Both the position numbers and the translations under genes were made by a program. The notes beneath the pieces were generated by a model. The model was not told the origin of the DNA and did no database searches. It worked only from the letters and a program-made list of their open reading frames with translations. A stretch of DNA of 64,000 bases from Saprospiraceae bacterium (GTDB lineage Bacteria > Bacteroidota > Bacteroidia > Chitinophagales > Saprospiraceae): the NCBI GenBank assembly GCA_044347755.1, contig JBIKUE010000009.1, positions 1,933 to 65,932 on the forward strand, in the 5' to 3' direction. Positions 7,497 to 38,611 of this stretch are shown in pieces. The stretch's first letter is position 1. Each line of letters begins with the position of its first letter.

Positions 7497-9734
7497 ATGA
7501 AACGGTTTATTCAGGCCCTGGCCTTTTTTTCTCCCCTTTTCCTGCTTGCCCAAACACCGGAAATACCGCTTACCAAAGGATTACGCATTGAGCAATCCTG
7601 CAAGGTGATCACCAACTTGTATGAAATTCCGGTATCTGCTAACGAGACCTGCATCACCATTTCCGGCGAAAACCTGGTTATCGATTTCCAGGGTGCAGAA
7701 TTGCGCGGCGCACCAACCAATGCTTTGCCCGATGGCCTGACGGGTACCGCCATTGTAGTGAGCGGGAAAAACATCACCATTAAAAACTGTAAAGCCCGTG
7801 GCTATAAAGTTGCTTTATATGCCGAAAACGTGGAAAACCTGGTCATTGAAAACTGCGAATTTTCCTACAATTACCGCCCGAGGCTACGCTCTATCCGTGA
7901 GCGCGAAGACTTTTCCGACTGGCTCAGCTATCACCAAAACGAAAAAGATGAATGGCTCCGATACGGCAGCGCCATGTATCTTAAAAATTGCTCAAAGCCT
8001 ACCGTGCGCGGATGCCGGGTTACCGGATGCCAAAATGCACTGCTCATGACCGGTTGCAATGATGGACTGGTGTACAACAATTTCTTTGTTTTCAACTCCG
8101 GCCTCGGCATCGGACTATATCGGAGCAGTCGCAACAAATTGATGCACAATCGGCTGGACTGGAATGTGCGCGGCTATTCCCATCGGTTTTACCAACGCGG
8201 GCAGGACTCGGCCGGCATTTTGCTGTATGAACAAAGCAGTAACAACACCATCGCATACAACTCCGTTACCCACTGCGGTGATGGGCTCTTCCTTTGGGCA
8301 GGGCAAAGCACAATGGATACAGGTAAGGGAGGCTGCAACGATAACTGGATTTTTGGCAACGACTTCAGCTATGCCCCTACCAATGGCATTGAAGTAACCT
8401 TTTCCCGAAATAAAATCCAGGGCAACGTGCTGCGAGAATGTACCTATGGTATATGGGGTGGTTACAGCTACGAAACCTATATCATGGGCAATTTTATTGC
8501 CGACTGCAAAACCGGTATCGCCATCGAACACGGGCAAAACGATACCATCAGGCAAAACGTGTTCCAGGGCGACAGCGTTGGTATTCAGCTTTGGGCCAGG
8601 GAAACACAGCCATCTGATTGGGGTTATGCTAAAAAGCGTGACACGCGCAGCCGTAATGCCATCATTGACCGGAACGTGTTTCTTTTGACTCGAAAACCCT
8701 TGAAAATCAGCCGCTCCAAAGATATTTCCATCAATGGAGTAAACCTGTTCCACGATTTTGAGACCTTGCTGGAAACCCCGCATCCCAACGAAAACCTGAA
8801 ATTCCTTCGCAATGAAGTGTACGGAACCGTGCCTCAGATCAAAGCCTTGTGGGCACATCCTGAAATAGCTGGTTCTGAAAATGTAAACTTTTCGCATCCG
8901 GGCCAAAAACCGGAAAATCCTTATTCCCCACTGGATATCACCTACGGAGAGTTGGTAGAGCCTGATAGCTTACCCGATGGCATGATTGCAGCGCTGCCTC
9001 GCGGGTTCCCAAAGGGAAGAACCTTTATCATCATGGATGAATGGGGCCCTTATGATTTTCTGCGCCCAATTGCCATATTGGATACCGTAGCGGGTAATAA
9101 GTATTCCATTGCCATTGTGGGGCCATCCGGCAACTGGAGCATAACCCAAACAGAAGGGGTGAAATATATCAGCGCCCGAAAAGGAGTTACTCCACAAACC
9201 ATTACCGTAGACCGCGATCCAGCCTCCAAATCCCTATATCTGGCATTTGAATACACCAGCCCTAAGAGCGCAAAAACAGTATTTGGTGAAGTTGTTCCCA
9301 CCGGCACTAAATACTACTTCACTTTCGACCGGCTGGAACAGAATTTCGACTGGAAAATGGAATTTTTCCGGTACGACAGTCTGTCCGGCAACAAAGCCTT
9401 TGCTACGCCGCCCCTGGCTACCCGGCAACAATCCGAACTTTACTCAGCGTGGTGGGGAAGCCCGGCGCCTGGCGTTCCGGAAGACGGTTTTGCTACAAAA
9501 GCAAGCACAGAATTTGACATCACCCCTGGCATCTACACTTTTGAACTAACTTCCGACGACGGCGTTCGGATGTATCTGGACGACCAACTGGTGGTAGACA
9601 ACTGGGATGTACACGAACCCGAAACCAACGAGATCAGTGTAAACCTGGGTGGCAAACATCGGATCAGGATTGAGCATTTCGATGCCGGCGGTTTCGCTAC
9701 ACTCGATCTCAGGATCAGGAAGAAAAGGAACTAA
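7497..9734 (+). CDS. secreted right-handed parallel beta-helix repeat protein with C-terminal PA14-like domain
   Basis: ORF 7479..9734 (TTG) trimmed to ATG 7497 (MKRFIQALAFFSPLFLLAQ). Reiterated beta-helix turns are visible (NNTIAYNSVTHCGDG, NWIFGNDF, NKIQGNVL). The C-terminus TFELTSDDGVRMYLDDQLVVDNW...HRIRIEHFDAGG resembles PA14. Confidence 0.8.
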   Translation: MKRFIQALAFFSPLFLLAQTPEIPLTKGLRIEQSCKVITNLYEIPVSANETCITISGENLVIDFQGAELRGAPTNALPDGLTGTAIVVSGKNITIKNCKARGYKVALYAENVENLVIENCEFSYNYRPRLRSIREREDFSDWLSYHQNEKDEWLRYGSAMYLKNCSKPTVRGCRVTGCQNALLMTGCNDGLVYNNFFVFNSGLGIGLYRSSRNKLMHNRLDWNVRGYSHRFYQRGQDSAGILLYEQSSNNTIAYNSVTHCGDGLFLWAGQSTMDTGKGGCNDNWIFGNDFSYAPTNGIEVTFSRNKIQGNVLRECTYGIWGGYSYETYIMGNFIADCKTGIAIEHGQNDTIRQNVFQGDSVGIQLWARETQPSDWGYAKKRDTRSRNAIIDRNVFLLTRKPLKISRSKDISINGVNLFHDFETLLETPHPNENLKFLRNEVYGTVPQIKALWAHPEIAGSENVNFSHPGQKPENPYSPLDITYGELVEPDSLPDGMIAALPRGFPKGRTFIIMDEWGPYDFLRPIAILDTVAGNKYSIAIVGPSGNWSITQTEGVKYISARKGVTPQTITVDRDPASKSLYLAFEYTSPKSAKTVFGEVVPTGTKYYFTFDRLEQNFDWKMEFFRYDSLSGNKAFATPPLATRQQSELYSAWWGSPAPGVPEDGFATKASTEFDITPGIYTFELTSDDGVRMYLDDQLVVDNWDVHEPETNEISVNLGGKHRIRIEHFDAGGFATLDLRIRKKRN

Positions 9735-10465: not shown

Positions 10466-13330
10466 ATGAAAAAGCTGCTCCCTGTACTCCTGATATTTTT
10501 GCCCATCTTGCTAGCAGGCCAGGTTGATGCGGCAAGGCAAATAGACAGTCTGATTAACCTCTCCAAAACCATGATGAACCAGGGCAAAAGCGGATTCGCC
10601 GAGGCCCTGAAAGCTATTGAAACAGCCGAAACCCTTGCCCGAAATGGCTTTGGAGAACAAAGCACAGTATATGCCAAATGCCGGTTTCAGCACGGGCGCT
10701 TGCTGGATGTTTCAGGCAAAATGGATGAAGCAGAGCCTATTTACCAGGAAGTAAAAGCCATTCAGGAGAAAACCATCGGCAGAGAAAATGCAGAGTATGC
10801 CGCTACCGTATATCACCTGGCCAGCGTTACCAAAGACCTTGGCTATTACCCCGAAGCAGAGGCATTATATCTGGAAGCGCTCCGCATTCAGGAAAAAACA
10901 CCGGGAAAAGAACACCCCGACTATGCCCGCACGGTAAATTTCCTGGCCAATCTGTACCGTGCCACTGGCGAATACGACAAAGCGGAACCGCTTTGCCTCG
11001 AGTCCATGAGGATTCGGGAGCGGGTAATGGGCAAGGAAAATTCCGATTTTGCCTGGAGCTTGAACAGCCTTGCCAATGTTTATACCGAGAAAGGCGATTT
11101 CGACAAAGCCGAACCGCTCTACCTGGAATCCATGGCCATACGGGAACGGGTACTGGGCAAGGATCATCCGAACTATTCTGCAAGCATGAATAACCTCGGC
11201 TTTTTGTACGTCAAAAAAAGACGTTACGACCGCGCCGAAGCGCTTTACCTGGAAGCCAAAGAGCGTCGCGAACGCGTGCTGGGAAAGGAGCACCCGGCTT
11301 ATGCCGTTACGCTGAACAACCTGGCCGAACTGTATTTCCTGAAGCAGGAATACGACAAGGTAGAACCTTTGTACCAGGAAGCCAAGGACATACAAGCCAG
11401 CGTATTCGGTAAAGACCACCCGGATTATGCCCTAAGTCTGGATAACCTGGCAAGGCTTTACCTGGCTAAAAAGGAATTCATAAAAGCGGAAGCTTACTAC
11501 CTCGAAGCCCGGGATATCCGTCAAAAAGTATTCGGAAAAGATCATCCTGATTATGCCGGCAGCCTGTTCCATCTGGCCGGCTTTTATGCCTCTCAGTGGC
11601 AACCCGATAAAGCACGCGCTTATTTCCTGGAATACATACCACTGGTATGGAACCTCGTCAATAAATCGGCCCAATATTCATCGGAAGCGCAACAAAATGC
11701 TTATTTAAAAACCTTTAATATACAGACAGATCAGTTTTATGCATTTGCCATGGCACATCCGGATCCGGCGGTAACACAGATGGCATTTTCCAATGCGTTA
11801 TTTTTTAACGGCTATTTACTTGAAAACTCCAGGCTGCTTCTGCGCGCCTGCGATGCAGCCGATAGCCTGACACGGGCAACCTATATGCAATGGCAGGAGG
11901 CCAGGCGCAAACTGGCCAAACGCTACGCCAGACCTGTTTCTGAACGAAAAAAAATTGCAGCGGTAGAACAAGAAGCCGAAGCCCTGGAAAAAAACCTTTT
12001 ACACAATCTGCCGGCATTTGAGCAGTCGCGCAGTATCCCACAATGGGAAACCGTCCGCAATGCCCTTAAACCCGGGGAAACAGCCATCGAGTTCGTTCGT
12101 TTTCAGCGAGAATCGCCTAAAAGTATCCATTATGCGGCTTTAATGGTAAAGCCCGGTGCAGTGGCTCCTGAAATGATTCCGCTGTTTGAAGAGGGCGATC
12201 TGGAGAAACTGTTGCATACCACCGGAGAAAAAAAAGTGGATTATGTGGAAACGCTGTATTCCGTTCCAAAACGCGGGTTAATTGTGATGGAAACGCCTCG
12301 CAAAACCCTCTTTGAGTTGATCTGGAAACCCCTGATGCCACATCTGAAAGACTTCAATACCTTATATTTTGCTCCTGCCGGCTTGCTGCACCGTATCAAT
12401 CTGGGTGCAGTAGCTATTAACCAAGATTCCATAGTAGCCGACCGGTTTCGATTGATCGGACTGGGCAGCACTCGCCAGTTAGCGAGTACTGACACATTCC
12501 AAACGGTAAATGCCCGTGCCGAGCTGTTTGGCGGTATTCAGTTCGATATGGACTCCACGGCCATACTGAAAGCCAATGAAAATTTCCTTCAGACCGAAAC
12601 GACATCCAGGGGATTGGCTGTGGACCAGACCTTTTCCGATCAGGAGCAAGCCGGGCCTTTTCGGTTTTTAAAGGGCTCCGTTAAAGAAATAAATGCCCTT
12701 GCTGGCATTGTTAAAGAAGCCGGTTTTACCCCAAAAACGTGGTCCGGATTTGCTGCCACAGAGGAAGCCGTTAAATTTTTAGGCACCCGGGAAGAAGCAC
12801 CCAGGGTGCTACACCTGGCCACCCACGGCTATTTTTTCCCGGATCCCAAAGACAGTGTCACACTGAACATTCCGGTGGATGAAACCACCACGGGTTTCAT
12901 TGCCAGCAGTCATCCGCTCATTCGTTCCGGACTGGCCATGGCTGGCGCCAACTATGCCTGGAGCACCGGAAAATCCCTTAAAAAAGGCATGGAAAACGGC
13001 ATTCTCACAGCCTACGAGATCAGCCATCTCAACCTGCAAAACACCGAATTGGTGGTGCTCTCTGCCTGCGAAACCGGCTTGGGGGACATTGAAGGGAACG
13101 AAGGAGTATACGGTCTGCAACGTTCGTTTAAATTAGCCGGGGCCAAATACCTCATCATGAGCCTGTGGAAAGTGCAGGATTATCAAACCCAGGAATTGAT
13201 GACCGCTTTCTACCGCTACTGGCTACTGGACAAACAAACCATTCCGGAGGCTTTCAGGTCCGCTCAGCTGGAGATGCGGGAGCGTTATGAAAATCCTTAT
13301 TTCTGGGCGGGTTTTGTGTTGATGGAGTGA
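10466..13330 (+). CDS. TPR-repeat protein with C-terminal CHAT (caspase-like) domain and N-terminal signal peptide
   Basis: N-terminus MKKLLPVLLIFLPILLAGQ. About eight 42-aa repeats match the pattern AEPLYLEA..IRE.VLGK.HPDYA..LNNLA.LY. The CHAT-like dyad contexts HLATHGYF and VLSACETG are present. Confidence 0.9.
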   Translation: MKKLLPVLLIFLPILLAGQVDAARQIDSLINLSKTMMNQGKSGFAEALKAIETAETLARNGFGEQSTVYAKCRFQHGRLLDVSGKMDEAEPIYQEVKAIQEKTIGRENAEYAATVYHLASVTKDLGYYPEAEALYLEALRIQEKTPGKEHPDYARTVNFLANLYRATGEYDKAEPLCLESMRIRERVMGKENSDFAWSLNSLANVYTEKGDFDKAEPLYLESMAIRERVLGKDHPNYSASMNNLGFLYVKKRRYDRAEALYLEAKERRERVLGKEHPAYAVTLNNLAELYFLKQEYDKVEPLYQEAKDIQASVFGKDHPDYALSLDNLARLYLAKKEFIKAEAYYLEARDIRQKVFGKDHPDYAGSLFHLAGFYASQWQPDKARAYFLEYIPLVWNLVNKSAQYSSEAQQNAYLKTFNIQTDQFYAFAMAHPDPAVTQMAFSNALFFNGYLLENSRLLLRACDAADSLTRATYMQWQEARRKLAKRYARPVSERKKIAAVEQEAEALEKNLLHNLPAFEQSRSIPQWETVRNALKPGETAIEFVRFQRESPKSIHYAALMVKPGAVAPEMIPLFEEGDLEKLLHTTGEKKVDYVETLYSVPKRGLIVMETPRKTLFELIWKPLMPHLKDFNTLYFAPAGLLHRINLGAVAINQDSIVADRFRLIGLGSTRQLASTDTFQTVNARAELFGGIQFDMDSTAILKANENFLQTETTSRGLAVDQTFSDQEQAGPFRFLKGSVKEINALAGIVKEAGFTPKTWSGFAATEEAVKFLGTREEAPRVLHLATHGYFFPDPKDSVTLNIPVDETTTGFIASSHPLIRSGLAMAGANYAWSTGKSLKKGMENGILTAYEISHLNLQNTELVVLSACETGLGDIEGNEGVYGLQRSFKLAGAKYLIMSLWKVQDYQTQELMTAFYRYWLLDKQTIPEAFRSAQLEMRERYENPYFWAGFVLME

Positions 13331-20405: not shown

Positions 20406-20556
20406 AAAAGTCCGGGTTTAAATGTTGGATCAAATGACGAGGCAAAAGCGGAAGGGGTTGGATTGCATTGTGGCTAATTGTGTTTTTTTTAACATGAATG
20501 GAGGGGAAGGAGTCGTTTGGGGTCATTTTTTGGTCGTTGGCAATGCTCGGGCAACG

Positions 20557-20663
20557 GTCATCCTGAGCGCAGCGAAGGATCTGGCCAAAGCCAATGGAGT
20601 GGTAAAAATCTATGAAAGCTCGTAATTAATCATTGTCAGATCCTTTACTGTGCTCAGCATGAC
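20557..20663. repeat. inverted repeat of the gtcatcctgagcgcagcgaaggatct family
   Basis: gtcatcctgagcgcagcgaaggatctg (20557-20583) pairs with cagatcctttactgtgctcagcatgac (20637-20663). A second member of the same family is at 33079-33187. Confidence 0.8.
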
Positions 20664-20821
20664 AACCCACGTTACCCAAATATTAAAATCATGGAAAATC
20701 AGCTATATAGGTTGTAGTCTTGGCTAGGTGGAAGCGTTATAACTAACCCCCGGATTGCTCTTGTTTTGGCAAGACCGGGCGAGGCGTAAAAAAATAGATT
20801 TCATTGTCCTTGATCCGAAAA

Positions 20822-20855
20822 GCGGGGTTTCAAAGCCCACGCTCTGAAACCCCGC
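20822..20855 (-). terminator. stem-loop followed by a T-run after the toxin-immunity operon (copy A)
   Basis: On the minus strand the sequence reads gcggggtttca-loop-tgaaaccccgc followed by ttttcgg. It lies 12 nt after the stop at 20867. Confidence 0.6.
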
Positions 20856-20866
20856 ATGACAATCCC

Positions 20867-21592
20867 TTAGTTATTATAAGCCGCTGCAGCCTCCTGCATT
20901 TTGGCTTTTTTCTCTTCAGGCGTTAATTCTCCAAGCTCCTCTGTTGGCGTAAACCTTATACCAACTAAACCCTCCTTTTCGATGGCATCTTTTAGCCGCT
21001 CTGAAACATAAAAGCCGGATGGCATAAAAATGAGTCGAAACATGTCGGTGCCTTCAGCTGCCTTGGAAATCTTGAGGACTCTGACATACAGGTTTTCTTT
21101 TTTGAAGAAAAGAGCATTTTTTAAGGATCTGAATTCCTCGTAGCTACTGAATTTCAAGCCCATTTTAATTACCTGGACAGCAAAATCAGTAGTATGCATC
21201 ACCTCAGTGTGTTCCCAGTCTACAAACTCGGCTGCACTGTTTTTGGTAAAATAGAGCAGAAAGTATGCCCGCTCTTCTTCTGCTTGTCTCACTGTCACCG
21301 GAAAGGCTTGATGATCAGCCAATTTGAATTTTGAAAGTAGGAAATAGAACCGACTACTTATGAGCAGGAACCCACCACCTCCTGGAGTAAAAGAGAACAA
21401 ATCTATCCATCTGGCTTCCTTTTCTAACAAAAGCACCGGAAACTTTTTGTTCGGATCAAGCTTCCCCTCCAGAGGAATGGATTGAAACGGGTGACCTTCT
21501 CCGGTTTCAGGGTTATGTACAAATTTTCGAACCTGCCCATCGATTCCAATTTCTTTCAAGTCCAGGGAAAACGTGATTTTATAAAAGTTCAT
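20867..21592 (-). CDS. orphan immunity-like protein, Imm11/DUF1629-like; paralogue of 25193..25921
   Basis: 241 aa, clearly homologous to the ORF that directly follows the AHH toxin in copy B. The C-terminal pattern DMFRLIFMPSGFYVSERLKDAIEKEGLVGIRF resembles Imm11. It is preceded by a remnant of the AHH toxin 3' end. Confidence 0.6.
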   Translation of the reverse strand: MNFYKITFSLDLKEIGIDGQVRKFVHNPETGEGHPFQSIPLEGKLDPNKKFPVLLLEKEARWIDLFSFTPGGGGFLLISSRFYFLLSKFKLADHQAFPVTVRQAEEERAYFLLYFTKNSAAEFVDWEHTEVMHTTDFAVQVIKMGLKFSSYEEFRSLKNALFFKKENLYVRVLKISKAAEGTDMFRLIFMPSGFYVSERLKDAIEKEGLVGIRFTPTEELGELTPEEKKAKMQEAAAAYNN

Positions 21593-21596
21593 GGCA

Positions 21597-21686
21597 TTAG
21601 AAATTCAAATCGTTGATTTTTGTGGTCGGGTTTTGATCAATCAAATTGCCCAGCTGGTTTTGAAAATCACGCAATCGCTGACTTGC
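21597..21686 (-). pseudogene. remnant of the 3' end of an AHH-type toxin gene (last 30 codons plus stop)
   Basis: The reverse complement translates to ASQRLRDFQNQLGNLIDQNPTTKINDLNF*. This is identical in protein to residues 578-607 of the copy-B toxin, with a few synonymous differences. Homology ends abruptly at 21686. Confidence 0.75.
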
Positions 21687-21692
21687 TATTCT

Positions 21693-21739
21693 GCCGCGCT
21701 TGGGTCTTCCCGATGAAGTCGGGAAGACCCAAGCGCGGC
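21693..21739 (-). terminator. perfect 21-bp stem / 5-nt loop hairpin at the cassette junction
   Basis: gccgcgcttgggtcttcccga (21693-21713) pairs perfectly with tcgggaagacccaagcgcggc (21719-21739). It lies 20 nt downstream of the 212-aa ORF stop and 6 nt from the toxin remnant. There is no T-run. Confidence 0.55.
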
Positions 21740-21759
21740 GAACGAAACGAAACGCCCGA

Positions 21760-22398
21760 TTATCTTATATCGTCCAGTATGCTCAGGTTCAAACCTGCGG
21801 CAATAAATTCATCACTCACGATCATCTCTTCCGGTGTTTCCGGATGATCAAATAATACCCGGAAATGCCCCTCTCCCTCAGCAAAAATGTACACCCACTT
21901 GCCATTCTCAAAATGGAATCCGATAATATCAAGGGTCTTTTTGTTGATATGAATGACATCTGGCAACTCGGCATTGGGCGGAAAAAAGCAGGCAATTTCT
22001 TCCCTTCGTGAGGCGGTTTCTATTGTTTCTACCCGTACCTCACCCATCCCGACAATTCGTTGAACCGCTCCGTGATCTCCTTGAATGCAGAAATGATATC
22101 CCAGTTTTTTTAAGGTGTCCCTGCTGCTTACTTCCACATTCAGGAGGTTAGCTTCTATACCATACAAATTGCCGGCAACATTTTGCGTGCCTTTGGAATG
22201 AATTTCCAGCCTCATCGGTTTTTCCGGACGGGGGCGTTTGAATATCAGTAATAACGGGCAAAAGTGGCTGTATAATTCAAGCGGTTGTGACAGACCCAAA
22301 AAGCCATCTGGAACAAAAACCGTAAAGCCCTTTGTTCCGAGAGCATCCCGGAACAAAGGGTTAATGTTACACTCAAAGTCGATGTGAAGTTCTGACAT
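21760..22398 (-). CDS. putative cognate immunity protein for toxin A (no recognised family)
   Basis: 212-aa ORF. Its ATG overlaps the toxin stop (TGATG, 1-nt overlap), which suggests translational coupling. There is no signal peptide. The immunity role is inferred from position only. Confidence 0.55.
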   Translation of the reverse strand: MSELHIDFECNINPLFRDALGTKGFTVFVPDGFLGLSQPLELYSHFCPLLLIFKRPRPEKPMRLEIHSKGTQNVAGNLYGIEANLLNVEVSSRDTLKKLGYHFCIQGDHGAVQRIVGMGEVRVETIETASRREEIACFFPPNAELPDVIHINKKTLDIIGFHFENGKWVYIFAEGEGHFRVLFDHPETPEEMIVSDEFIAAGLNLSILDDIR

Positions 22399-24239
22399 CA
22401 GAATCGCATTTTAAATTCGAAAGAACCTTTTTTAATGGCAATGGTGGGTTCGCCAGATGAGGTAGATTCAAGGTAGAACCTCATAGTGTAGTTGTTTCCT
22501 CCAAGATTGAATTCTGCAGTTATCTCATTTCCGTTGTTCCCAGAACTAATGTTATCAGGATCAATCTCAAAAGCTTCTACCAGGTCATCCCAAACATCAA
22601 GCGGCCCAAGCCCGTTAACCTTTGCCCCATTTCCAGTCCACTCAATCTTGGCGTAAAGATCATCAATTTTATTTCTTAAAACCTGATAGACCCTGTATGC
22701 AACATCATCGCCAAGCGTATATACTTTCTTCATTACATCATAAAACTTCATCAGGCTCGTTGCCTTTTTACCCAAACTGACTCCAAATGAAGCCACTTTC
22801 GCTATCGGAACAAAGGTGCCTGCTTCATCCAGTGCAATTTCTGCAGCAGTCCATATTGCGCCAAGGTAATCTCCGCTTTTTAACTGGTCAATTGCTGCTG
22901 GGCCAAGCGTGATAATTGTACCACCCGGTATAATGTCTATTAAGGCATCCTTTAACGCTAGTTCAAGCTGCTCAATGATAATATCCCAAACAGGGTTACT
23001 GATTGAATTGCTCTGAGCGTCTTGAAAAAACTGTTGAACTTCAACTGATCCAGAAGAAAGCATTTGGATATAACTTACCACAACTGCTGCCGCTAAGTTG
23101 GCATCATGCTGGTTAGCATTGTGGCTCTGCAGGAACGATAAACACTCTCCAATTCGACCTGAATTACTTACCAACCAATTTAACTGCGCAGCATTAAATT
23201 GGCAGTCATTTATCAGTTGTACCAGCAATTCTGCAGCGTCTTTGGATGCTGCATCCCCTCCATTAAATGTTATGAAGGACCCAATTTCGTCAAATAAAGC
23301 CTGATCGTTTAGCAGCAGTGTTTTTTCGGCGGCAGTAAGATCAAACCAGTCATCTACGATCACCTCTTTGGTACATTGAGACAGGCCGCTGTTAAACGCA
23401 TCGTACCATTCGGGTCCGTCATAAGAGGAAAAACCACAAGTGTTTTTGATCTGCTCCATCAAATCGATCGGATGCTGCTCCAGGAAGAATTTATCCTTGA
23501 GCAAATGGGTCAAAAGGATTGCGAACGAGCCGTTGCATTTACCATTAATATAGGCTTTTAGCTTGTCGGCGGTTGCAATGTCCTTAGGACTGGCATCCCA
23601 ATATTTGATGATCTCCTCCTGCTGTGGATGGCCATATTGTGTGAACAGGCACATGGATTCTGCCCCGTTCAAACCAGCCTCATTGACAAGCATACAAAAA
23701 TCCAGATCTGTCTGACTATAGCCGGGTGGAATCTCTCCAATCGAGAGAATGTATTCATTGATGGCAGCACAGGTTGCCATCTGGCCGGAAAACTGCTGGT
23801 CAAAAATGCCTCCTCCGCCAGGTTGTTGGTAACCTTCCGGCGTAGTCCATCCCAATTGCCCTCCCGGGAAAAAATAGGATCCGGAATATGATTCGGAGCT
23901 GCCATTGATGGCATCCCAGATATTGCCGGCAACGGTACCGAAGTCTTTCCAAAATTCATTCCACCAACCCCAATCAATATTAATATTGTTGCTTCCAAAT
24001 TGAGGACACCTTACCTTCGGCTTGCCATCTCTGTCGGATGACGTTGAATCAGTTTGCGCAAATCCGGAGGAGATATCCCAAAACGGAATTTTACCGTCTC
24101 CTTTCAGAGCAATGTAGCCGTTAACCACCTTCACAAACTTTTCAATGGTATCTTCCTGGCTTACCAGCATCATAGTACCATTGAACTGACCGGTAGCATC
24201 CAAAGAGGAAAGAACGTGGACAGAGAGTCGGCTGCCCAT
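22398..24239 (-). CDS. polymorphic toxin A: shared 343-aa N-terminal region plus unique 270-aa C-terminus of unknown activity
   Basis: 613 aa. Residues 1-343 equal those of copy B except for 2 substitutions. Sequences diverge completely after ...AELLVQLI (nt ~23210). The C-terminal part has a PT-TG-like linker (DIIPGGTIITLGPAAIDQLKSGDYLGAIW) and then ~125 aa that I cannot assign. Confidence 0.7.
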   Translation of the reverse strand: MGSRLSVHVLSSLDATGQFNGTMMLVSQEDTIEKFVKVVNGYIALKGDGKIPFWDISSGFAQTDSTSSDRDGKPKVRCPQFGSNNINIDWGWWNEFWKDFGTVAGNIWDAINGSSESYSGSYFFPGGQLGWTTPEGYQQPGGGGIFDQQFSGQMATCAAINEYILSIGEIPPGYSQTDLDFCMLVNEAGLNGAESMCLFTQYGHPQQEEIIKYWDASPKDIATADKLKAYINGKCNGSFAILLTHLLKDKFFLEQHPIDLMEQIKNTCGFSSYDGPEWYDAFNSGLSQCTKEVIVDDWFDLTAAEKTLLLNDQALFDEIGSFITFNGGDAASKDAAELLVQLINDCQFNAAQLNWLVSNSGRIGECLSFLQSHNANQHDANLAAAVVVSYIQMLSSGSVEVQQFFQDAQSNSISNPVWDIIIEQLELALKDALIDIIPGGTIITLGPAAIDQLKSGDYLGAIWTAAEIALDEAGTFVPIAKVASFGVSLGKKATSLMKFYDVMKKVYTLGDDVAYRVYQVLRNKIDDLYAKIEWTGNGAKVNGLGPLDVWDDLVEAFEIDPDNISSGNNGNEITAEFNLGGNNYTMRFYLESTSSGEPTIAIKKGSFEFKMRF

Positions 24240-24613
24240 AAAACCAGTTTACTTTGAATTTGTCCGGCCGGGTCTTTATAAAAAGCCAGGCTACTCCCAA
24301 ATCGGGTGCCCGGAAGTGAGGCAGGAGTATCAACAGGCGTGATAAGTACCGGAAAGCCAGAAGGTGTTACAATATAGGATTCGTTCCAGAGGGGCGTTAC
24401 ACATAGTGGCAGCTTGTCTTCTGACCGGTCGAGAGCCCCTCCTCCATTTGAAAACCGGCCTTTTACTTCTTCCAATGAAATGGAGCGGTTGACCAGTTCA
24501 TTGGCTGGCTCACTCAACGGAATTTCTTGTAGTTCCTTTCTACATCCGCCTGCAAAAACTAAAGTAAGTAATACAATAACAGGCCACGCTGTGGCAAATT
24601 TGAATTGAATCAT
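24170..24613 (-). CDS. small lipoprotein ORF overlapping the toxin A start by 70 nt (possibly the original N-terminus of the toxin)
   Basis: 147 aa. MIQFKFATAWPVIVLLTLVFAGGC is a signal peptide plus lipobox. It ends 70 nt inside the toxin ORF in another frame. The frame junction is at a T4 run (ctggttttatggg). Confidence 0.6.
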   Translation of the reverse strand: MIQFKFATAWPVIVLLTLVFAGGCRKELQEIPLSEPANELVNRSISLEEVKGRFSNGGGALDRSEDKLPLCVTPLWNESYIVTPSGFPVLITPVDTPASLPGTRFGSSLAFYKDPAGQIQSKLVLWAADSLSTFFPLWMLPVSSMVL

Positions 24614-24782
24614 CTTGAAGGTTGTGTTTTGACGGTCTTCAGTTGTCCTTGCCTCGCGCGCCGGTGGGGATTTCTGATTACGTCAGGTTAAAAATTACTG
24701 TTGTTATTAATTGGATGCACAAATATGCGTGGCTCCCTCTCTAAAAAAATATAACACTTTTTGGCACTTATTCCCCACCAAC

Positions 24783-24893
24783 AGAATGGAGCGGGGCATT
24801 ATCAATGCCGGCTTAAGTCAATTATTCAAAATAGCCGAAGCGCTGGAAATTCACCCAAAGGAATTGTTTGATTTTGACCTGGAGGAGGATTAG
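24783..24893 (+). pseudogene. truncated XRE-family regulator remnant (C-terminal half only)
   Basis: Only RMERGIINAGLSQLFKIAEALEIHPKELFDFDLEED matches the intact copy at 28292..28531. The upstream part of ORF 24711..24893 is unrelated and lacks the first HTH helices. Confidence 0.7.
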
Positions 24894-24965
24894 TCCAATA
24901 AATCCTGCCTTCTGCGCACTTAGCGTGGACGGACCTTTAGAATAAGGCATCCACCCCGAAATAAA

Positions 24966-25021
24966 AAAGGCCCCGAAAACAGCCCAACATCCTAAAAATG
25001 TCGGGCCGCTCCGAGGCCTTT
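24966..25021. repeat. duplicated copy of the structured element/terminator found after the E2 gene (28724-28779)
   Basis: aaaggccccgaaaacagcccaacatcctaaaaatgtcgggccgctccgaggccttt is the same at both loci. It contains nested stems (gcccaacat/atgtcgggc inside aaaggcc..ggccttt). Confidence 0.75.
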
Positions 25022-25192
25022 ATATCAAATCACGGTTTGGCCTTAAAAGTGGCCAAGCTTTTTACGGCAGAGTAAGAGGCTAAAAGTGATAATCCATTTG
25101 TGTTATGTGAAGGAAACTACACTTAATTACCCCTAAACCTTAAAGTTTTTACCTTTCAGAGTCTACTCTCTGAAACCCCGCATGACAATCCC

Positions 25193-25921
25193 TTAGTTAT
25201 TATAAGCCGCTGCAGCTTCCTGCATTTTGGCTTTTTTCTCTTCCGGTGTTAATTCTCCAAGCTCCTCTGTTGGCGTAAACCTTATACCAACTAAACCTTC
25301 CTTTTGGATGGCATCTTTTAGCCGCTCTGAAACATAAAAGCCGGATGGCATAAAAACAAACTTGAACATGTCGGTACCTTCAGCTGCCTTGGCGATCTTG
25401 AGGACTCTAACATACAGGTTTTCTTTATTGTGTAGCAATTCCATTTTTCTGGCCAAAAACTCCTCATAGCTACTGAATTTCAAGCCCATTTTAATTACCT
25501 GGGCAGCAAAATCAGTAGTATGCATCACCTCAGTGTGTTCCCAATCTACAAACTCGGCTGCACAGTTTTTGGTAAAATAGAGCAGAAAGTATGCCCGCTC
25601 TTCCTCTCCTTGTCTCACTGTCACCGGGAAAGCTTGATAATCATCCAAATTGAATTGGCTCAACAGCATATAAAAACGACTGCTTATTAGAAGCAGACGC
25701 CCTGATCCGGGAACTTGTTCAAGCAGATCCGTCCATTTTGCAGCCTTTTCTAACAAAAGCACCGGAAACTTTTTGTTCGGATCAAGCTTACCCTCCAGAG
25801 GAATGGATTGAAAGGGGTGACCTTCTCTGGTTTCAGGGCTTTGTACAAATTTCTGAACTTGGTCATAAATTCCAATGACCTTCGGATCCAAAGAAAGTGC
25901 AAGTCTGAAAAACTTCATCAT
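25193..25921 (-). CDS. putative immunity protein for the AHH toxin, Imm11/DUF1629-like
   Basis: 242 aa. The start lies 1 nt after the toxin B stop. The C-terminal pattern DMFKFVFMPSGFYVSERLKDAIQKEGLVGIRF resembles Imm11, which is the usual neighbour of AHH/HNH toxins. Confidence 0.65.
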   Translation of the reverse strand: MMKFFRLALSLDPKVIGIYDQVQKFVQSPETREGHPFQSIPLEGKLDPNKKFPVLLLEKAAKWTDLLEQVPGSGRLLLISSRFYMLLSQFNLDDYQAFPVTVRQGEEERAYFLLYFTKNCAAEFVDWEHTEVMHTTDFAAQVIKMGLKFSSYEEFLARKMELLHNKENLYVRVLKIAKAAEGTDMFKFVFMPSGFYVSERLKDAIQKEGLVGIRFTPTEELGELTPEEKKAKMQEAAAAYNN

Positions 25922-25922
25922 A

Positions 25923-27746
25923 TTAGAAATTCAAATCGTTGATTTTTGTGGTGGGGTTTTGATCAATCAAATTTCCCAGCTGGTTTTGAAAATCACGCAA
26001 TCGCTGACTTGCAACATCTGGAGGAATATTATTAAGCCCTCCATATTGAGTTTCTAATTGACTCAAAATCTCATTCAAATTTATTCGGACTTTTTCATTA
26101 TATTGCGGATGATTTCCATGAACACCATCCTGTTGATCGAAACGGAACCGTTTTAACTCTCTTCCATTTTTTGGGTGGTTCATGTGAAAAGGGGTGTTAT
26201 TAGCCTTCGCCGCAAGTTGTACCAACTCGTGATCTTGTCTTGACCAAGGAATCAAATGATGCGCATCATTCGCTGCATCGGTAATTTCCATTACCTCTCT
26301 CAAACCTGTTCTTTCACCAAAGGTAATAAGTCCTCCATCATTTGTCAACTTCAATAAATGCTGAACGCCTGTAGATGCCTTTTTTACTGCGACATGTGCA
26401 TATTTACCGCCTGTAGATATCCATCCAGCGATTGGAAGGGTTGCTGCAAAGCTCAGGGATGCATTCAGCGGATCACCCTCGATTATGAATAGTACACCAT
26501 TGGTCAGATCACATGGCTCGCCAACTACAGGCAGAAGCCCACAAATGTCAAGAGCAATATGTAATTCATACATTACCTCTTTTACTGCCTGGAGAAAAAT
26601 GGTGTCCATATCCCAAGATGGATGTAAAATCTTCAACCATGCCATCTTCATAATCAACTGGACAAATACACCCGGAGGAAAATCCTCCTCCTTGAACGAT
26701 GGGTATTTACCTTGTGCAATTAGCTGTACCAGCAACTCCGCAGCGTCTTTGGATGCTGCATCCCCTCCATTAGAAGTTATGAAGGACCCAATTTTGTCAA
26801 ATAAAGCCTGATCATTCAGCAGTAGTGTTTTTTCGGCGGCAGTAAGATCAAACCAGTCATCTACGATCACCTCTTTGGTACACTGAGACAGACCACTGTT
26901 AAAAGCATCGTACCATTCGGGTCCGTCATAAGAGGAAAAGCCACAAGTGTTTTTGATCTGCTCCATCAAATCGATCGGATGCTGCTCCAGGAAGAATTTA
27001 TCCTTGAGCAAATGGGTCAAAAGGATTGCGAACGAGCCGTTGCATTTACCATTAATATAGGCTTTTAGCTTGTCGGCGGTTGCAATGTCCTTAGGACTGG
27101 CATCCCAATATTTGATGATCTCCTCCTGCTGTGGATGGCCATATTGTGTGAACAGGCACATGGATTCTGCCCCGTTCAAACCAGCCTCATTGACAAGCAT
27201 ACAAAAATCCAGATCTGTCTGACTATAGCCGGGTGGAATCTCTCCAATCGAGAGAATGTATTCATTGATGGCAGCACAGGTTGCCATCTGGCCGGAAAAC
27301 TGCTGGTCAAAAATGCCTCCTCCGCCAGGTTGTTGGTAACCTTCCGGCGTAGTCCATCCCAATTGCCCTCCCGGGAAAAAATAGGATCCGGAATATGATT
27401 CGGAGCTGCCATTGATGGCATCCCAGATATTGCCGGCAACGGTACCGAAGTCTTTCCAAAATTCATTCCACCAACCCCAATCAATATTAATATTGTTGCT
27501 TCCAAATTGAGGACACCTTACCTTCGGCTTGCCATCTCTGTCGGATGACGTTGAATCAGTTTGCGCAAATCCGGAGGAGATATCCCAAAACGGAATTTTA
27601 CCGTCTCCTTTCAGAGCAATGTAGCCGTTAACCACCTTCACAAACTTTTCAATGGTATCTTCCTGGCTTACCAGCATCATAGTACCATTGAACTGACCGG
27701 TAGCATCCAAAGAGGAAAGAACGTGGACAGAGAGTCGGCTGCCCAT
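25923..27746 (-). CDS. polymorphic toxin B: shared 343-aa N-terminal region plus C-terminal AHH-type HNH/EndoVII nuclease domain
   Basis: 607 aa. The C-terminus reads DAHHLIPWSRQDHELVQLAAKANNTPFHMNHPKNGRELKRF...DGVHGNHPQYNEKV, which fits the AHH family pattern (AHHxIP ... N..NG..L ... HxGxHxxYN). It is preceded by a PT-TG-like linker LLPVVGEPCDLTNGVLFIIEGDPLNA. Confidence 0.75.
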   Translation of the reverse strand: MGSRLSVHVLSSLDATGQFNGTMMLVSQEDTIEKFVKVVNGYIALKGDGKIPFWDISSGFAQTDSTSSDRDGKPKVRCPQFGSNNINIDWGWWNEFWKDFGTVAGNIWDAINGSSESYSGSYFFPGGQLGWTTPEGYQQPGGGGIFDQQFSGQMATCAAINEYILSIGEIPPGYSQTDLDFCMLVNEAGLNGAESMCLFTQYGHPQQEEIIKYWDASPKDIATADKLKAYINGKCNGSFAILLTHLLKDKFFLEQHPIDLMEQIKNTCGFSSYDGPEWYDAFNSGLSQCTKEVIVDDWFDLTAAEKTLLLNDQALFDKIGSFITSNGGDAASKDAAELLVQLIAQGKYPSFKEEDFPPGVFVQLIMKMAWLKILHPSWDMDTIFLQAVKEVMYELHIALDICGLLPVVGEPCDLTNGVLFIIEGDPLNASLSFAATLPIAGWISTGGKYAHVAVKKASTGVQHLLKLTNDGGLITFGERTGLREVMEITDAANDAHHLIPWSRQDHELVQLAAKANNTPFHMNHPKNGRELKRFRFDQQDGVHGNHPQYNEKVRINLNEILSQLETQYGGLNNIPPDVASQRLRDFQNQLGNLIDQNPTTKINDLNF

Positions 27747-28120
27747 AAAACCAGTTTACTTTGAATTTGTCCGGCCGGGTCTTTATAAAAAGCCAGGCTA
27801 CTCCCAAATCGGGTGCCCGGAAGTGAGGCAGGAGTATCAACAGGCGTGATAAGTACCGGAAAGCCAGAAGGTGTTACAATATAGGATTCGTTCCAGAGGG
27901 GCGTTACACATAGTGGCAGCTTGTCTTCTGACCGGTCGAGAGCCCCTCCTCCATTTGAAAACCGGCCTTTTACTTCTTCCAATGAAATGGAGCGGTTGAC
28001 CAGTTCATTGGCTGGCTCACTCAACGGAATTTCCTGTAGTTCCTTTCTACATCCGCCTGCAAAAACTAAAGTGAGTAATGCAATAACAGGCCACGCTGTG
28101 GCAATTTTGAATTGAATCAT
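27677..28120 (-). CDS. small lipoprotein ORF overlapping the toxin B start by 70 nt (paralogue of 24170..24613)
   Basis: 147 aa. It differs from the copy-A ORF at 2 residues (F6I, V14A) and has the same LVFAGGC lipobox and the same overlap geometry. Confidence 0.6.
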   Translation of the reverse strand: MIQFKIATAWPVIALLTLVFAGGCRKELQEIPLSEPANELVNRSISLEEVKGRFSNGGGALDRSEDKLPLCVTPLWNESYIVTPSGFPVLITPVDTPASLPGTRFGSSLAFYKDPAGQIQSKLVLWAADSLSTFFPLWMLPVSSMVL

Positions 28121-28243
28121 CTTGAAGTTTGTGTTTTGACGGTTTTCAGTTGTCCTTGCCTCGCGCGCCGGTGGGGATTTCCGTTGCCGTCGGGTTATTA
28201 AAATTGATAATTAGAACAAATATAGAGGCTCGGATCAAATTTG

Positions 28244-28255
28244 GGCAAATTTGCC
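28244..28255. promoter_or_regulatory. perfect 12-bp palindrome ggcaaatttgcc in the divergent promoter region; candidate operator
   Basis: It lies 37 nt upstream of the XRE start, inside the 170-nt region between the lipoprotein/toxin operon and the XRE gene. An adjacent direct repeat caaatttg occurs twice. It is absent from copy A. Confidence 0.3.
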
Positions 28256-28291
28256 TAAATTATTTTTTCACTACAGGCGGAATCTCGCCAT

Positions 28292-28531
28292 GTGAAATAC
28301 AGCGTACACAAAACCGGGTTGAAAGCTTTCGGGAGGCGCCTAAGGGCACTGCGAAAGTCTAAAGGACTCTCTCAAGAACAGTTAGCCTGGAAGGCAGACT
28401 CTGAGCTTAGTCAGATCAGCAGAATGGAACGGGGCATTATCAACGCCGGATTAAGTCAGTTATTCAAAATAGCCGAAGCGCTGGAAATTCACCCAAAGGA
28501 ATTGTTTGATTTTGACCTGGAGGAGGATTAG
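28292..28531 (+). CDS. XRE-family helix-turn-helix transcriptional regulator
   Basis: 79 aa with a GTG start. FGRRLRALRKSKGLSQEQLAWKADSELSQISRMERG is a typical HTH_3/XRE pattern. It is divergent from toxin operon B. Confidence 0.8.
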   Translation: MKYSVHKTGLKAFGRRLRALRKSKGLSQEQLAWKADSELSQISRMERGIINAGLSQLFKIAEALEIHPKELFDFDLEED

Positions 28532-28723
28532 TCCAATAAATCCTGCCTTCTGCGCACTTAGCGTGGACGGACCTTTAGAATAAGTCAGGCTTGGGGGATT
28601 AGAGTGGAGCAGAAAGAGCAGCACACATTGTTAAATATTTAGTGCGTTGCTAACGGGAGATAAGCATATTTTTTCAATATGAATATTTTTAGGTGGGGCA
28701 AAGCACTGCCCCCCCCCCAACAA

Positions 28724-28779
28724 AAAGGCCCCGAAAACAGCCCAACATCCTAAAAATGTCGGGCCGCTCCGAGGCCTTT
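28724..28779 (-). terminator. nested stem-loop element downstream of the E2 gene
   Basis: On the minus strand it follows the E2 stop (28820) by ~40 nt. The stem aaaggcctcgg...ccggggccttt is followed by T residues, with an internal hairpin gcccgacat/atgttgggc. Confidence 0.5.
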
Positions 28780-28819
28780 ATATCAAATGACGGTTTGGCC
28801 TTAGCCAAGGCCAGGTCTT

Positions 28820-30148
28820 TTACAACGCCCGGTTCGGATCAAACTGCTCCAGATAATCTGCTATCCGGCGCAGGAAAGAGCCGCCCAGGGAGCCGTCTAC
28901 CACACGGTGGTCGTAGGAAAGCGAGAGGAACATCATCTGGCGCACGGCAATTACATCGCCATATTCGGTTTCGAGTACGGCCGGTTTTTTGCGGATGGCG
29001 CCCGTGGCCAGGATGGCTACCTGCGGCTGGTTGATGATAGGCGTGCCCATCACATTGCCGAAGGTGCCCACATTGGTGATGGTGAACGTGCCGCCCTGAA
29101 TTTCGTCGGGCTTGAGCTGGTTCTGACGGGCGCGGTTGGCCAGGTCGTTCACCTGTTTGGTGAGTCCGGCCAGGTTGAGGTAATCGGCATTGCGAATCAC
29201 CGGTACAATCAGGTTGCCGCTGGGTAGCGCCGCCGCCATACCGATGTTGATGTCTTTCCGGACGATCAGTTTGGTACCATCCACAGAAATATTGATCATC
29301 GGGAAATCGCGGATAGCTCGGGCCACGGCCTCCACGAAAATGGGTGTGAACGTGATGTTCTCCCCGTATTGCTTTTTAAAGGAGTCCTTGATGCGGTTGC
29401 GCCAGTTCACCAGGTTGGTTACATCGGCCTCCACGAAGGACGTCACGTGCGGGCTGGTGTGTTTGCTCATCACCATGTGGTCGGCGATGAGTTTGCGCAT
29501 ACGATCCATTTCTACGATCTCCACATTTCCGGAAATGGAAACCGGCGGTGGTGCGGGTATGGACGGCGCGGGTGTTGGGGCGGGTGCGGAAGGCGCACTG
29601 GGCACTGCAGGGCTACTGGTCGCAACAGCGCCGGCTTTGCCCCGATTGGCCACATAAGCCAGGATATCTTTTTTGGTCACACGACCGTCTTGGCCGGTAC
29701 CCGGAATGGCATCCAGTTCTTGCTGGGAAACCCCTTCTTCTTTGGCGATGGTGCGCACCAGCGGAGAGTAAAAGCGGTCGGAGCTGGATTGTACGGCTGC
29801 CGGGGCTGCTGCCTGAGGTGCGTAAGGCACCTGGGCGGCTTGTACAGAAGCGGTATCCGGTGTGGTGGAGGCGGAAGCGCTGCTACCGGCGGAAACTGCG
29901 GCGCCTGCTTCGGTTTCGATGATGGCAATGGCCTTATTGATGGCTACTACCTCATTTTCCTGAAACAGAATTTCAACAAGCGTCCCGGCAACCGGAGAAG
30001 GCACTTCGGAGTCAACCTTATCCGTGGCGATATCAAGAACGGGTTCATCCAGTTCAACAGAATCGCCTGGTTTTTTGCGCCATTTGAGGATGGTGGCCTC
30101 CATGATGCTCTCGCCCATCTTGGGCATCACAAGTTCTACGCGAGCCAT
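28820..30148 (-). CDS. 2-oxoacid dehydrogenase E2 component (dihydrolipoamide acyltransferase)
   Basis: 442 aa. Lipoyl-lysine context DIATDKVDSEVPSP, an Ala/Pro-rich linker, an E3-binding region, and the catalytic motif LSYDHRVVDGSLGGSFL. Confidence 0.9.
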   Translation of the reverse strand: MARVELVMPKMGESIMEATILKWRKKPGDSVELDEPVLDIATDKVDSEVPSPVAGTLVEILFQENEVVAINKAIAIIETEAGAAVSAGSSASASTTPDTASVQAAQVPYAPQAAAPAAVQSSSDRFYSPLVRTIAKEEGVSQQELDAIPGTGQDGRVTKKDILAYVANRGKAGAVATSSPAVPSAPSAPAPTPAPSIPAPPPVSISGNVEIVEMDRMRKLIADHMVMSKHTSPHVTSFVEADVTNLVNWRNRIKDSFKKQYGENITFTPIFVEAVARAIRDFPMINISVDGTKLIVRKDINIGMAAALPSGNLIVPVIRNADYLNLAGLTKQVNDLANRARQNQLKPDEIQGGTFTITNVGTFGNVMGTPIINQPQVAILATGAIRKKPAVLETEYGDVIAVRQMMFLSLSYDHRVVDGSLGGSFLRRIADYLEQFDPNRAL

Positions 30149-37450: not shown

Positions 37451-38611
37451 ATGTACCCGGATCTTTCCTATCTTTTTCACGACCTTATCGGAACGTCGCC
37501 CGATAATTGGTTGTCTATTTTTAAAACCTTCGGATTTGTACTGGCACTGTCGTTCCTGGTGAGCGCACTGGTGTTCAATATTGAGTTGCGGCGCAAAGCC
37601 AAAGAAGGCTTTTATGTTCCTGATGTGGTGAAAATAACGGAAGGATTGCCGGCTACTATAGGAGAAATCCTGTCGAATGCCGTGGCAGGACTGCTCATTT
37701 TCGGAAAAGGCATGTATGCCTACCTTCATTATGCCGAATTTCGACACGATCCTGCGTCAGTCATTCTCTCTGGAAAGATGCACTGGATTGGCGGTATTCT
37801 GGGCGCCGCTGCACTGGCCGGATTTACCTGGTGGGATGGTCAGCGCCGAAAAATGCCGGAACCAAAGGTTACAGAACGCAAATTATACCCACACGACAGG
37901 CTCAGTGAAATGACCGTAATGGCGGCCATTGGCGGAATACTGGGCGCCAAACTGTTTGATTTGTTCGACAACTGGGAGTCCTTTATTCAAGACCCCATTG
38001 GTTCCTTAGCCTCCGGAGGTGGACTGGCCTTTTTTGGCGGATTGGTGATGGGATTTGTCATGGTAGTCTGGTATATGTGGCGCCATAACATTCCATTCTG
38101 GCCTACTGCAGATGCCGTTGCACCAGCTCTGACTGCCGGCTATGGATTTGGCCGAATTGGCTGCCAACTTTCTGGCGATGGCGACTGGGGTATCGACAAC
38201 CTTGCACCAAAACCCGATTGGATGTCTTTCCTTCCCGACTGGATGTGGGCATACCGTTACCCACACAATGTACTGAAGGAAGGTGTGCCTATGGAAGGTT
38301 GCCATTTTGATTACTGCCGGGAGCTGGCCAATCCCGTATTCCCTACCCCATTTTATGAGGTAGTAATGATGAGCATCATATTTGCCATTCTGTGGTCTTT
38401 ACGCAGCCGCATCAAAACAGTGGGCATGATGTTCTTCATCTATCTGGGACTCATTGCTGTGGAACGTTTCATCATTGAAAAAATACGGGTGAACGTGGTA
38501 CACGATGTGCTTGGGTTCCAATTAACGCAGGCTGAAATTATTTCTATTTGCCTGTTCCTCATTAGTCTGGGTGGCATGGTGTACGTGAGTAAGTTTCGGG
38601 ACAAATCGTAA
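37451..38611 (+). CDS. lgt: prolipoprotein diacylglyceryl transferase
   Basis: 386 aa, polytopic. The motifs GGLAFFGGLVMG, FGRIGCQLSGDGDWG and FPTPFYEVV parallel Lgt signature regions. Confidence 0.8.
   Translation: MYPDLSYLFHDLIGTSPDNWLSIFKTFGFVLALSFLVSALVFNIELRRKAKEGFYVPDVVKITEGLPATIGEILSNAVAGLLIFGKGMYAYLHYAEFRHDPASVILSGKMHWIGGILGAAALAGFTWWDGQRRKMPEPKVTERKLYPHDRLSEMTVMAAIGGILGAKLFDLFDNWESFIQDPIGSLASGGGLAFFGGLVMGFVMVVWYMWRHNIPFWPTADAVAPALTAGYGFGRIGCQLSGDGDWGIDNLAPKPDWMSFLPDWMWAYRYPHNVLKEGVPMEGCHFDYCRELANPVFPTPFYEVVMMSIIFAILWSLRSRIKTVGMMFFIYLGLIAVERFIIEKIRVNVVHDVLGFQLTQAEIISICLFLISLGGMVYVSKFRDKS

Follow-up and report, generated by a model that had tools for sequence, protein, structure and literature searches.

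A stretch of 64,000 nucleotides (nt) from a Saprospiraceae bacterium (contig JBIKUE010000009.1 of assembly GCA_044347755.1, positions 1,933 to 65,932), here called the window, carries at 20822-28590 an island that an initial annotation had interpreted as two polymorphic toxin-immunity modules, each with a lipoprotein gene of its own in front of the toxin gene. We propose, with a probability of about 0.8 for this explanation as a whole, that the locus is a tandem duplication of one module consisting of an XRE regulator, a lipoprotein polymorphic toxin and an immunity gene. The comparison with relatives indicates that it is a genuine polymorphic toxin-immunity array, and it assigns the lipoprotein to the toxin itself, whose gene is cut in two by a deletion of 10 nt in both copies.

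The lipobox ORF and the 10-nt deletion

In each module an open reading frame (ORF) of 147 codons with a lipobox (24170-24613 and 27677-28120, minus strand) overlaps the following large ORF (22398-24239, 613 amino acids, and 25923-27746, 607 amino acids, minus strand) by 70 nt in a different frame, and the frame of the large ORF is shut four codons 5′ of its ATG. The sole database relative of the 147-residue ORF is protein P0005 (88% identical), which is continuous from ...KLVLWAADSLATFFP through ERAPLDATGQFNGTMMLVSQEDTIEKF..., that is, into the "large" protein. A metagenome contig of the Joint Genome Institute (JGI), L004, with 99% identity to copy 2, has DSLSTFFPQRVPLDATGQ without a change of frame, and in P0005 and L004 alike ...DSLSTFFP-QRVP-LDATGQ... 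is found in a single frame. Alignment of the DNA of L004 with both window copies (TTTCC-TCAACGTGTGC-CTTTGG versus TTTCC-TCTTTGG) showed that 10 nt are missing in both, at about 24204/24205 in toxin gene 1 (22398..24613, minus strand) and at about 27711/27712 in toxin gene 2 (25923..28120, minus strand); the intact allele has AACGTGTGCC at this site (24197-24214 and 27704-27721). The 147-residue ORF is thus the 5′ part of the toxin gene, through which L004 and P0005 read, and the separate partner gene of the initial annotation has to be given up. The large protein had been described as lacking a signal peptide; this is an artefact of the frameshift, which cuts off the toxin's own N-terminus, and the toxin's trafficking signal is a lipoprotein signal peptide (Sec/type II) of the usual kind.

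The 147-residue ORF aligns in register with the N-terminal domain of the relatives (motifs ITLEEV, LPL..P.W and GGNLAFYKD), and the large ORF picks up the family alignment at APLDS/FSG.M/QDTI; the last 22 residues of the former and the first 12 of the latter are out-of-frame readings of conserved coding sequence. In an AlphaFold model of the intact relative P0008 the deletion site falls into the loop between strands 116-125 and 146-151. The 147-residue ORF comprises the signal peptide plus predicted strands one to four, the remainder being left on the 607- and 613-residue ORFs, and since the deletion lies inside the predicted beta domain, neither ORF would encode the whole domain. Because the signal peptide is severed from the rest, both toxin genes are most likely export-dead pseudogenes. 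Their 607- and 613-codon frames are free of further lesions, and three candidate immunity ORFs are still open beside them.

The layout had been compared with that of Neisseria MafA/MafB, and one may ask whether it is a two-gene system after all, in which a separate 147-residue MafA-like lipoprotein anchors or escorts a signal-less toxin of 610 residues. Both ORFs are indeed open, the two copies share this arrangement, and locus L016 is similarly split into a 116-residue lipobox ORF and a 636-residue ORF. We nevertheless regard such a system as hardly credible, for the split sites differ between lineages (the 10-nt deletion here, the loss of 1 nt from a T run in L016), the lipobox ORF is continuous with the toxin in L004, P0005, L013 and ten other relatives, including alleles nearly identical to those of the window, and the 22 and 12 residues at the ORF ends are translated from the wrong frame. 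Moreover, the split bisects the predicted beta domain, and neither the window proteins nor the intact relatives have a Pfam match to MAFB-N/DUF1020. It was a frameshift that gave the locus its two-gene appearance, and gene calls at such loci need comparison with relatives.

A different objection is that the gap of 10 nt arose artificially in sequencing or assembly and that both toxin genes are intact and functional. It could be argued that an intact allele exists at 99% identity (L004), that no further lesion interrupts the 607 and 613 codons, and that the copies are identical around the site, so that a consensus error could spread to both. A deletion of 10 nt outside homopolymers is, however, an untypical sequencing error, the assembler told the copies apart (19 substitutions in the flanking coding parts), and independent N-terminal lesions are common in other assemblies (L001, L002/L003, L012 and L016). 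We consider an artefact unlikely.

These other lesions are of several kinds. Within the signal-peptide codons a T run has nine T (T9, out of frame) in L012, a metagenome-assembled genome (MAG; 9631-9653), and eight (T8, in frame) in L002 (302-323) and L003 (282-303), a difference that reflects either phase variation or assembly error. In L016 (7986-10180) one T was lost (T5/T4) between GGNLAF and Y, which gave rise to the 116- and 636-residue ORFs mentioned above. L002 and L003 contain in-frame TAG and TAA codons (L002 about 260-1093), and L001 (2-2023) contains a TAA codon. All lesions lie within the first approximately 200 codons, and in each disrupted locus the long remainder is open. This clustering may be the outcome of decay together with ascertainment bias, or it may reflect a switch.

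The latter would mean that the split is functional: the N-terminal lesions would turn export on and off, either through phase variation or through conversion with a sister copy as donor, or else a cytoplasmic product translated from an internal start would have a role of its own. That every disrupted locus (the window, L012, L016, L001 and L002/L003) shows the same pattern, and that two of the lesions are changes in the length of a T run (T8/T9 and T5/T4), would fit. The lesion in the window and the three nonsense codons are, however, irreversible by slippage, searches with the head favour long open remainders, in metagenome assemblies a differing T run may simply be an error, and the family members are mostly intact. 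A functional split therefore appears very unlikely to us, and we continue to treat the two genes of the window as most likely inactivated.

Constant head, exchangeable tails and downstream ORFs

All ORFs described in the initial annotation were found again in the ORF list, every one on the minus strand. The repeat finder gave an offset of 3507 bp between the conserved parts of the two modules, and by blastn 23212-24696 matches 26719-28205 with 98.1% identity, which bears out the tandem modules with near-identical heads. The large proteins differ up to residue 343 at 2 positions (E318K and F325S) and diverge completely from residue 344 onwards, as had been stated. Compared with each other, the two tails gave a BLASTP E value of 0.43; a pre-toxin module shared by both tails, for which a weak likeness was sought, is undemonstrated at this value.

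The head belongs to a rare family. Among 5.8 billion proteins a word-indexed search found four relatives of the head, and HMMER, run exhaustively over 1.84 billion cluster representatives, found 25 family members. The scan of 185,579 species genomes yielded two loci, both in Saprospiraceae MAGs, and a metagenome scan yielded three candidate loci, one of which (L017) encodes an unrelated protein and was discarded as a false positive. No relative turned up in a scan of viral contigs, which speaks against a phage link. The family has so far been seen only in Saprospiraceae genomes and in metagenomes, and our literature search found no paper on it.

The intact relatives are single lipoproteins of 616-767 residues. 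They begin with a type II signal peptide and a lipobox cysteine followed by x-K-[D/E], continue with a beta-rich domain of approximately 140 residues, a Trp/Gly-rich linker and an all-helical domain of approximately 230 residues with conserved cysteines, and end in an exchangeable C-terminal toxin. In the model of P0008, calculated from an alignment of 27 rows, the beta-rich domain (38-180) has a predicted local distance difference test score (pLDDT) of about 80-89 and the all-helical domain (277-506) one of 85-95; in the head, five Cys columns hardly vary throughout the family.

The claim that the shared head contains no known trafficking module was upheld, since no match of the constant region was found among Pfam or NCBIfam models, PDB sequences or PDB folds. 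In detail, the window proteins and the intact relatives gave nothing relevant with NCBIfam and had no Pfam or NCBIfam match to YD or haemagglutinin repeats, PAAR, VgrG, TANFOR or the C-terminal domain of the type IX secretion system (T9SS). A search of PDB sequences with the 613-residue protein gave no match, and Foldseek with the P0008 model against PDB gave nothing meaningful (best E value 0.036 with a template modelling (TM) score below 0.1). As far as sequence comparison can tell, the head is a previously undescribed, lineage-specific lipoprotein delivery region. Of the earlier proposal of an undescribed delivery family, the constant region without any match has stood and the design with a separate lipoprotein has not.

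That a constant head with a swappable tail and a coupled small gene is the mark of a polymorphic toxin-immunity locus had been the central claim, and the relatives support it: the one scaffold carries at least seven classes of tail, each recurring with its own downstream ORF. The AHH class comprises window copy 2, P0019 and P0011. The class that we call tail1 comprises window copy 1, L012 and P0016, with P0009 as a distant member (28%), and is also found in P0006, whose ORF lacks the lipoprotein head. A Cys/His tail with a weak match to Lnb_N is found in P0004, P0010, P0012 and P0017, a tail named after HHAVP in P0015 and P0025, and P0008, P0002 and P0023 each have a tail of their own.

The AHH nuclease tail, which had been recognised by its motif, was confirmed by a match to PF14412 (32.2 bits versus a cut-off of 22.3; residues 489-567 of the 607-residue protein). 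Its catalytic motif is intact (DAHHLIPW...NHPKNG...HGNHPQYN) when compared with the published definition [AG]HH...N...H...H...Y, and the published list of Tox-AHH partners includes Imm11 (Zhang et al. 2012, PMC3482391). Imm11 had been suggested for the downstream ORFs, and both the 241- and the 242-residue ORF indeed belong to PF07791 (34.3 and 37.8 bits versus a cut-off of 22.1). The candidate cognate gene of the AHH tail (25193..25921, minus strand; PF07791 E = 1.6e-9) starts 1 nt past the stop codon of toxin gene 2. An orphan paralogue (20867..21592, minus strand; PF07791 E = 1.9e-8), with 81% amino-acid identity to the first by blastp, lies at the end of module 1. The pairing of AHH with Imm11 is found in the window, L004 and L019.

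Tail1 is followed by an ORF of 212 codons (21760..22398, minus strand), a candidate immunity gene whose start overlaps the toxin stop codon by 1 nt. An ORF of this type (212/208 residues) is paired with tail1 in the window, L012 (87% identity), L014 (40%) and L018 (41%), with identities of 33-87% overall. By inspection no signal peptide was seen in the 212-residue ORF, and because its presumed partner lacks one, tail1 probably acts in the cytoplasm. Neither the ORF nor its family profile has a match in Pfam or PDB. The AlphaFold model of tail1 is confident at residues 150-270 only, and Foldseek against PDB found no match below E = 0.4; an RNase-like fold, guessed for this tail, found no support there and was dropped. 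The Cys/His tail has a different companion, a small membrane protein of approximately 110 residues, in L015 and L016. In L014 (158-3413) the head-less tail1 protein P0006 and its 212-residue partner ORF adjoin IS1-family transposase genes, and this neighbourhood hints at a possible route of cassette movement.

One might still regard the family as surface lipoprotein enzymes with varied C-termini, which are not antibacterial toxins and to which the downstream ORFs are unrelated, given that a recognised toxin domain is present in one of the seven tail classes and that the head has no known function. This is highly improbable: AHH and Imm11 are a documented toxin-immunity pair, downstream ORFs specific to the tail are seen at several loci, with start codons that overlap or adjoin the toxin stop, and orphan tail remnants and tail displacement (see below) are hallmarks of polymorphic toxins.

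Regulator, leader and history of the two copies

Divergently from toxin gene 2 the plus strand encodes an XRE-family helix-turn-helix regulator of 79 amino acids (28292..28531; Pfam HTH_3 E = 1.3e-12). By tblastn the gene is also found upstream of the toxin genes of relatives, at full length in L013 (78% identity), over amino acids 1-44 in L016 (77%) and partially in L012 and L002. In L013 the regulator is 78% identical, versus only 52% for the toxin head. This conserved position indicates that the XRE regulator is part of the module.

Between the XRE gene and toxin gene 2 lies a palindrome, TAGGCAAATTTGCC(C)A, at 28242..28257. Written as (T)AGGCAAATTTGCC(T/C) it is perfect, and it has only this one match in the window, where 0.19 matches were expected by chance; two or more were obtained in 3 of 100 shuffled sequences. 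A palindrome is found at the same place in L016 (7799-7814) and in L013 (9456-9471), where it reads AGGCGAATTCGCCT, both half-sites being changed with the symmetry kept. The palindrome is likely to be the operator of the XRE regulator.

Further towards the toxin gene, TATATTTG (28217..28224, minus strand) matches TAnnTTTG, which we take to be the -7 promoter motif of Bacteroidota; the position of this box is conserved in window copy 2, L013, L012, L002 and L016. It is followed by a 5′ leader with a core of approximately 50 nt (GAAATCCCCACCGGCGCGCGAGGCAAGGACAACTGAAAACCGTCAAAACAC; 28131..28181, minus strand) that is nearly invariant in the window, L012, L002 and L013 despite heads that are only 52% identical. 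The leader has no match in Rfam and its predicted consensus fold is weak and without covariation; a search of 20500-29000 with Rfam gave one chance-level miRNA match only.

Copy 1 has retained the leader core (24624..24674, minus strand) and has lost the 5′ part of the XRE gene, the palindrome and the TAnnTTTG box, the latter two being absent upstream of the core. The truncated XRE remnant (24711..24893, plus strand; by blastn 24779-24946 matches 28417-28584 with 97% identity) corresponds to the intact gene over the last 38 codons only (MERGIINAGL to stop). The regulator gene and its remnant had been overlooked in the initial annotation, as had the 70-nt ORF overlap, the remnant of an AHH tail and the identical stretch described in the following.

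Over a stretch of 1.09 kb that spans the deletion (23434-24526 in copy 1, 26941-28033 in copy 2) there is not a single difference between the copies (100% identity). To one side, in 23214-23433, there are 15 differences, 13 of which are synonymous, and to the other side, in 24527-24598, there are four more. The identical stretch suggests that the lesion passed between the copies by gene conversion. We infer that the two were diverged alleles under purifying selection, which were then homogenised by a conversion tract of approximately 1.1 kb carrying the deletion.

Module 1 has a history of its own. In front of the orphan Imm11 gene the last 30 codons of an AHH tail are left (IASQRLRDFQNQLGNLIDQNPTTKINDLNF* in translation; 21593..21686, minus strand), and by blastn 20828-21686 is 86% identical in nucleotides to 25154-26012. 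The remnant is evidence that module 1 probably arose when a cassette of tail1 and the 212-residue ORF displaced an older AHH tail.

The locus L012 (4610-9016) is a larger array than that of the window. A second scaffold, a 435-residue Gly-rich protein with a P0008-type tail, is followed by two lipoprotein-like ORFs, and the array also contains an orphan AHH tail (240 amino acids) with Imm11 and a tail1 toxin; behind a run of N at the contig end the N-terminus of yet another toxin gene is found.

Delivery and known systems

From the signal peptide and the lipobox one would expect an intact toxin to be exported by Sec and lipidated, and then to be anchored in the outer membrane, possibly at the cell surface, the signal for surface export being partly matched. 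The C-terminal toxin might then be transferred to a neighbour by contact or by vesicles, which is speculative, and comparison with relatives suggests that the producer would be protected by the product of the adjacent gene. Bacteroidota export lipoproteins to the surface and into vesicles. To our knowledge, the only experimentally characterised polymorphic toxins that are lipoproteins themselves are those of myxobacteria.

These toxins, SitA of Myxococcus, resemble the window family in that a toxin with a type II signal peptide and a lipobox has a conserved N-terminal "escort" and a polymorphic C-terminal nuclease, with the immunity gene downstream and several cassettes per genome (PMC5562445, PMC8546572). 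For the toxins of the window the likeness in the lipobox holds only once the 10-nt deletion is allowed for. SitA is delivered by TraAB outer-membrane exchange, and its authors found no homologues outside the Myxococcales (PMC5562445, PMC8546572). The window family is set apart by its different phylum and by the lack of a known sequence relationship, and where SitA loci have sitB upstream it has the XRE gene instead. Among the window ORFs no TraA/TraB-like protein was noticed in general Pfam scans, although no search was aimed at TraA/TraB.

One may speculate that the family is the Bacteroidota counterpart of SitA, with nuclease toxins that would be lipid-anchored in the outer membrane and would reach neighbours when vesicles fuse or membranes touch. 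The escort module would then consist of the beta domain and the Cys-rich helical domain, the N-terminal lesions and T runs would act as an export switch, and the XRE protein would be a repressor acting on the palindrome. As a whole this is a tentative and rather doubtful extension of our proposal of a duplicated lipoprotein toxin module.

Several observations tell against that proposal itself or narrow it. Known surface-export signals behind the lipidated cysteine are C-X-K-(D/E)2 (in Capnocytophaga) or S-(D/E)3. Of 13 family sequences, 12 have K at +3 and D or E at +4 (CRKELQE in the window), but only one, P0010, has a further acidic residue at +5, and in C. canimorsus KD alone is insufficient for surface export. 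Tail1 and the 212-residue ORF, without a known family or fold, owe their presumed roles to context alone, and the toxicity, immunity, lipidation and export of the family are all predicted properties. The missing 10 nt may be an assembly error, albeit one that would need to have affected both copies, which differ elsewhere, and the long downstream ORFs, being still open, may leave room for residual function.

Sec-exported toxins with lineage-specific N-terminal domains have been described before, among them MAFB-N, Microscilla-N and, behind a lipobox, APD1/APD2 of Amoebophilus (Zhang et al. 2012, PMC3482391). Like the window family, APD1/APD2 come from Bacteroidota, and they share with it a constant, taxon-restricted domain after the lipobox, highly variable C-termini and a proposed anchoring at the surface. 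The domain of the window family differs from all of these in sequence, with no Pfam or NCBIfam match, and because it is accompanied by adjacent immunity genes and displaced remnants, unlike the APD effectors, the window family appears to behave like classical serially variable toxins.

BSAPs of Bacteroidales are likewise antibacterial lipoproteins of Bacteroidota, and their activity requires surface export via a signal next to the lipidated cysteine (PMC12853789), to which the match in the window is partial. They differ from the window family in being pore formers with a fixed MACPF domain, without an exchangeable toxin and without an adjacent cytoplasmic immunity protein. With MafA/MafB/MafI of Neisseria the window family has in common the constant N-terminal region, the variable tail, the downstream immunity gene and the tandem modules; MafA is, however, a truly separate lipoprotein gene, whereas its counterpart in the window is a frameshift fragment of the toxin, without DUF1020/MAFB-N. 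The remnant of the old tail with its immunity gene (21593-21686 and 20867-21592) and the orphan AHH cassettes of L012 recall the orphan C-terminal toxin (CT)/immunity cassettes of CdiA and Rhs, although haemagglutinin or YD repeats, a VENN or PxxxxDPxGL junction and the context of a type V or type VI secretion system (T5SS/T6SS) are missing in the window.

The family adds a constant delivery region, several toxin tails and candidate immunity families to the catalogue, and lipoprotein toxins of Bacteroidota with nuclease tails raise the question how a protein anchored in the outer membrane reaches a foreign cytoplasm. The value of the locus is limited because the family is rare and known from uncultured or little-studied Saprospiraceae only, and because both copies are seemingly inactivated.

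The island is richer in AT than its flanks, as had been suspected (GC content 44.4% versus 48.5% elsewhere in the window). Pfam scans of the other window ORFs of at least 150 residues agreed with the earlier statement in finding no T6SS, integrase or transposase domains; they found housekeeping proteins, one T9SS substrate, one SprB-repeat protein and Lgt. Lgt, the prolipoprotein diacylglyceryl transferase, is the first enzyme of lipoprotein maturation; that its gene (37451-38611) lies approximately 9 kb from the island is probably a coincidence. A TPR-CHAT protein of 954 amino acids is encoded at 10466-13330, with no link to the island seen; CHAT is a caspase-like protease domain that is frequent in conflict systems. 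Encoded at 2437-5691 is an M4 (thermolysin-like) peptidase that carries a C-terminal sorting domain of the T9SS, and at 45472-47028 an SprB-repeat protein, from which it follows that the organism has a T9SS and gliding-type surface proteins.

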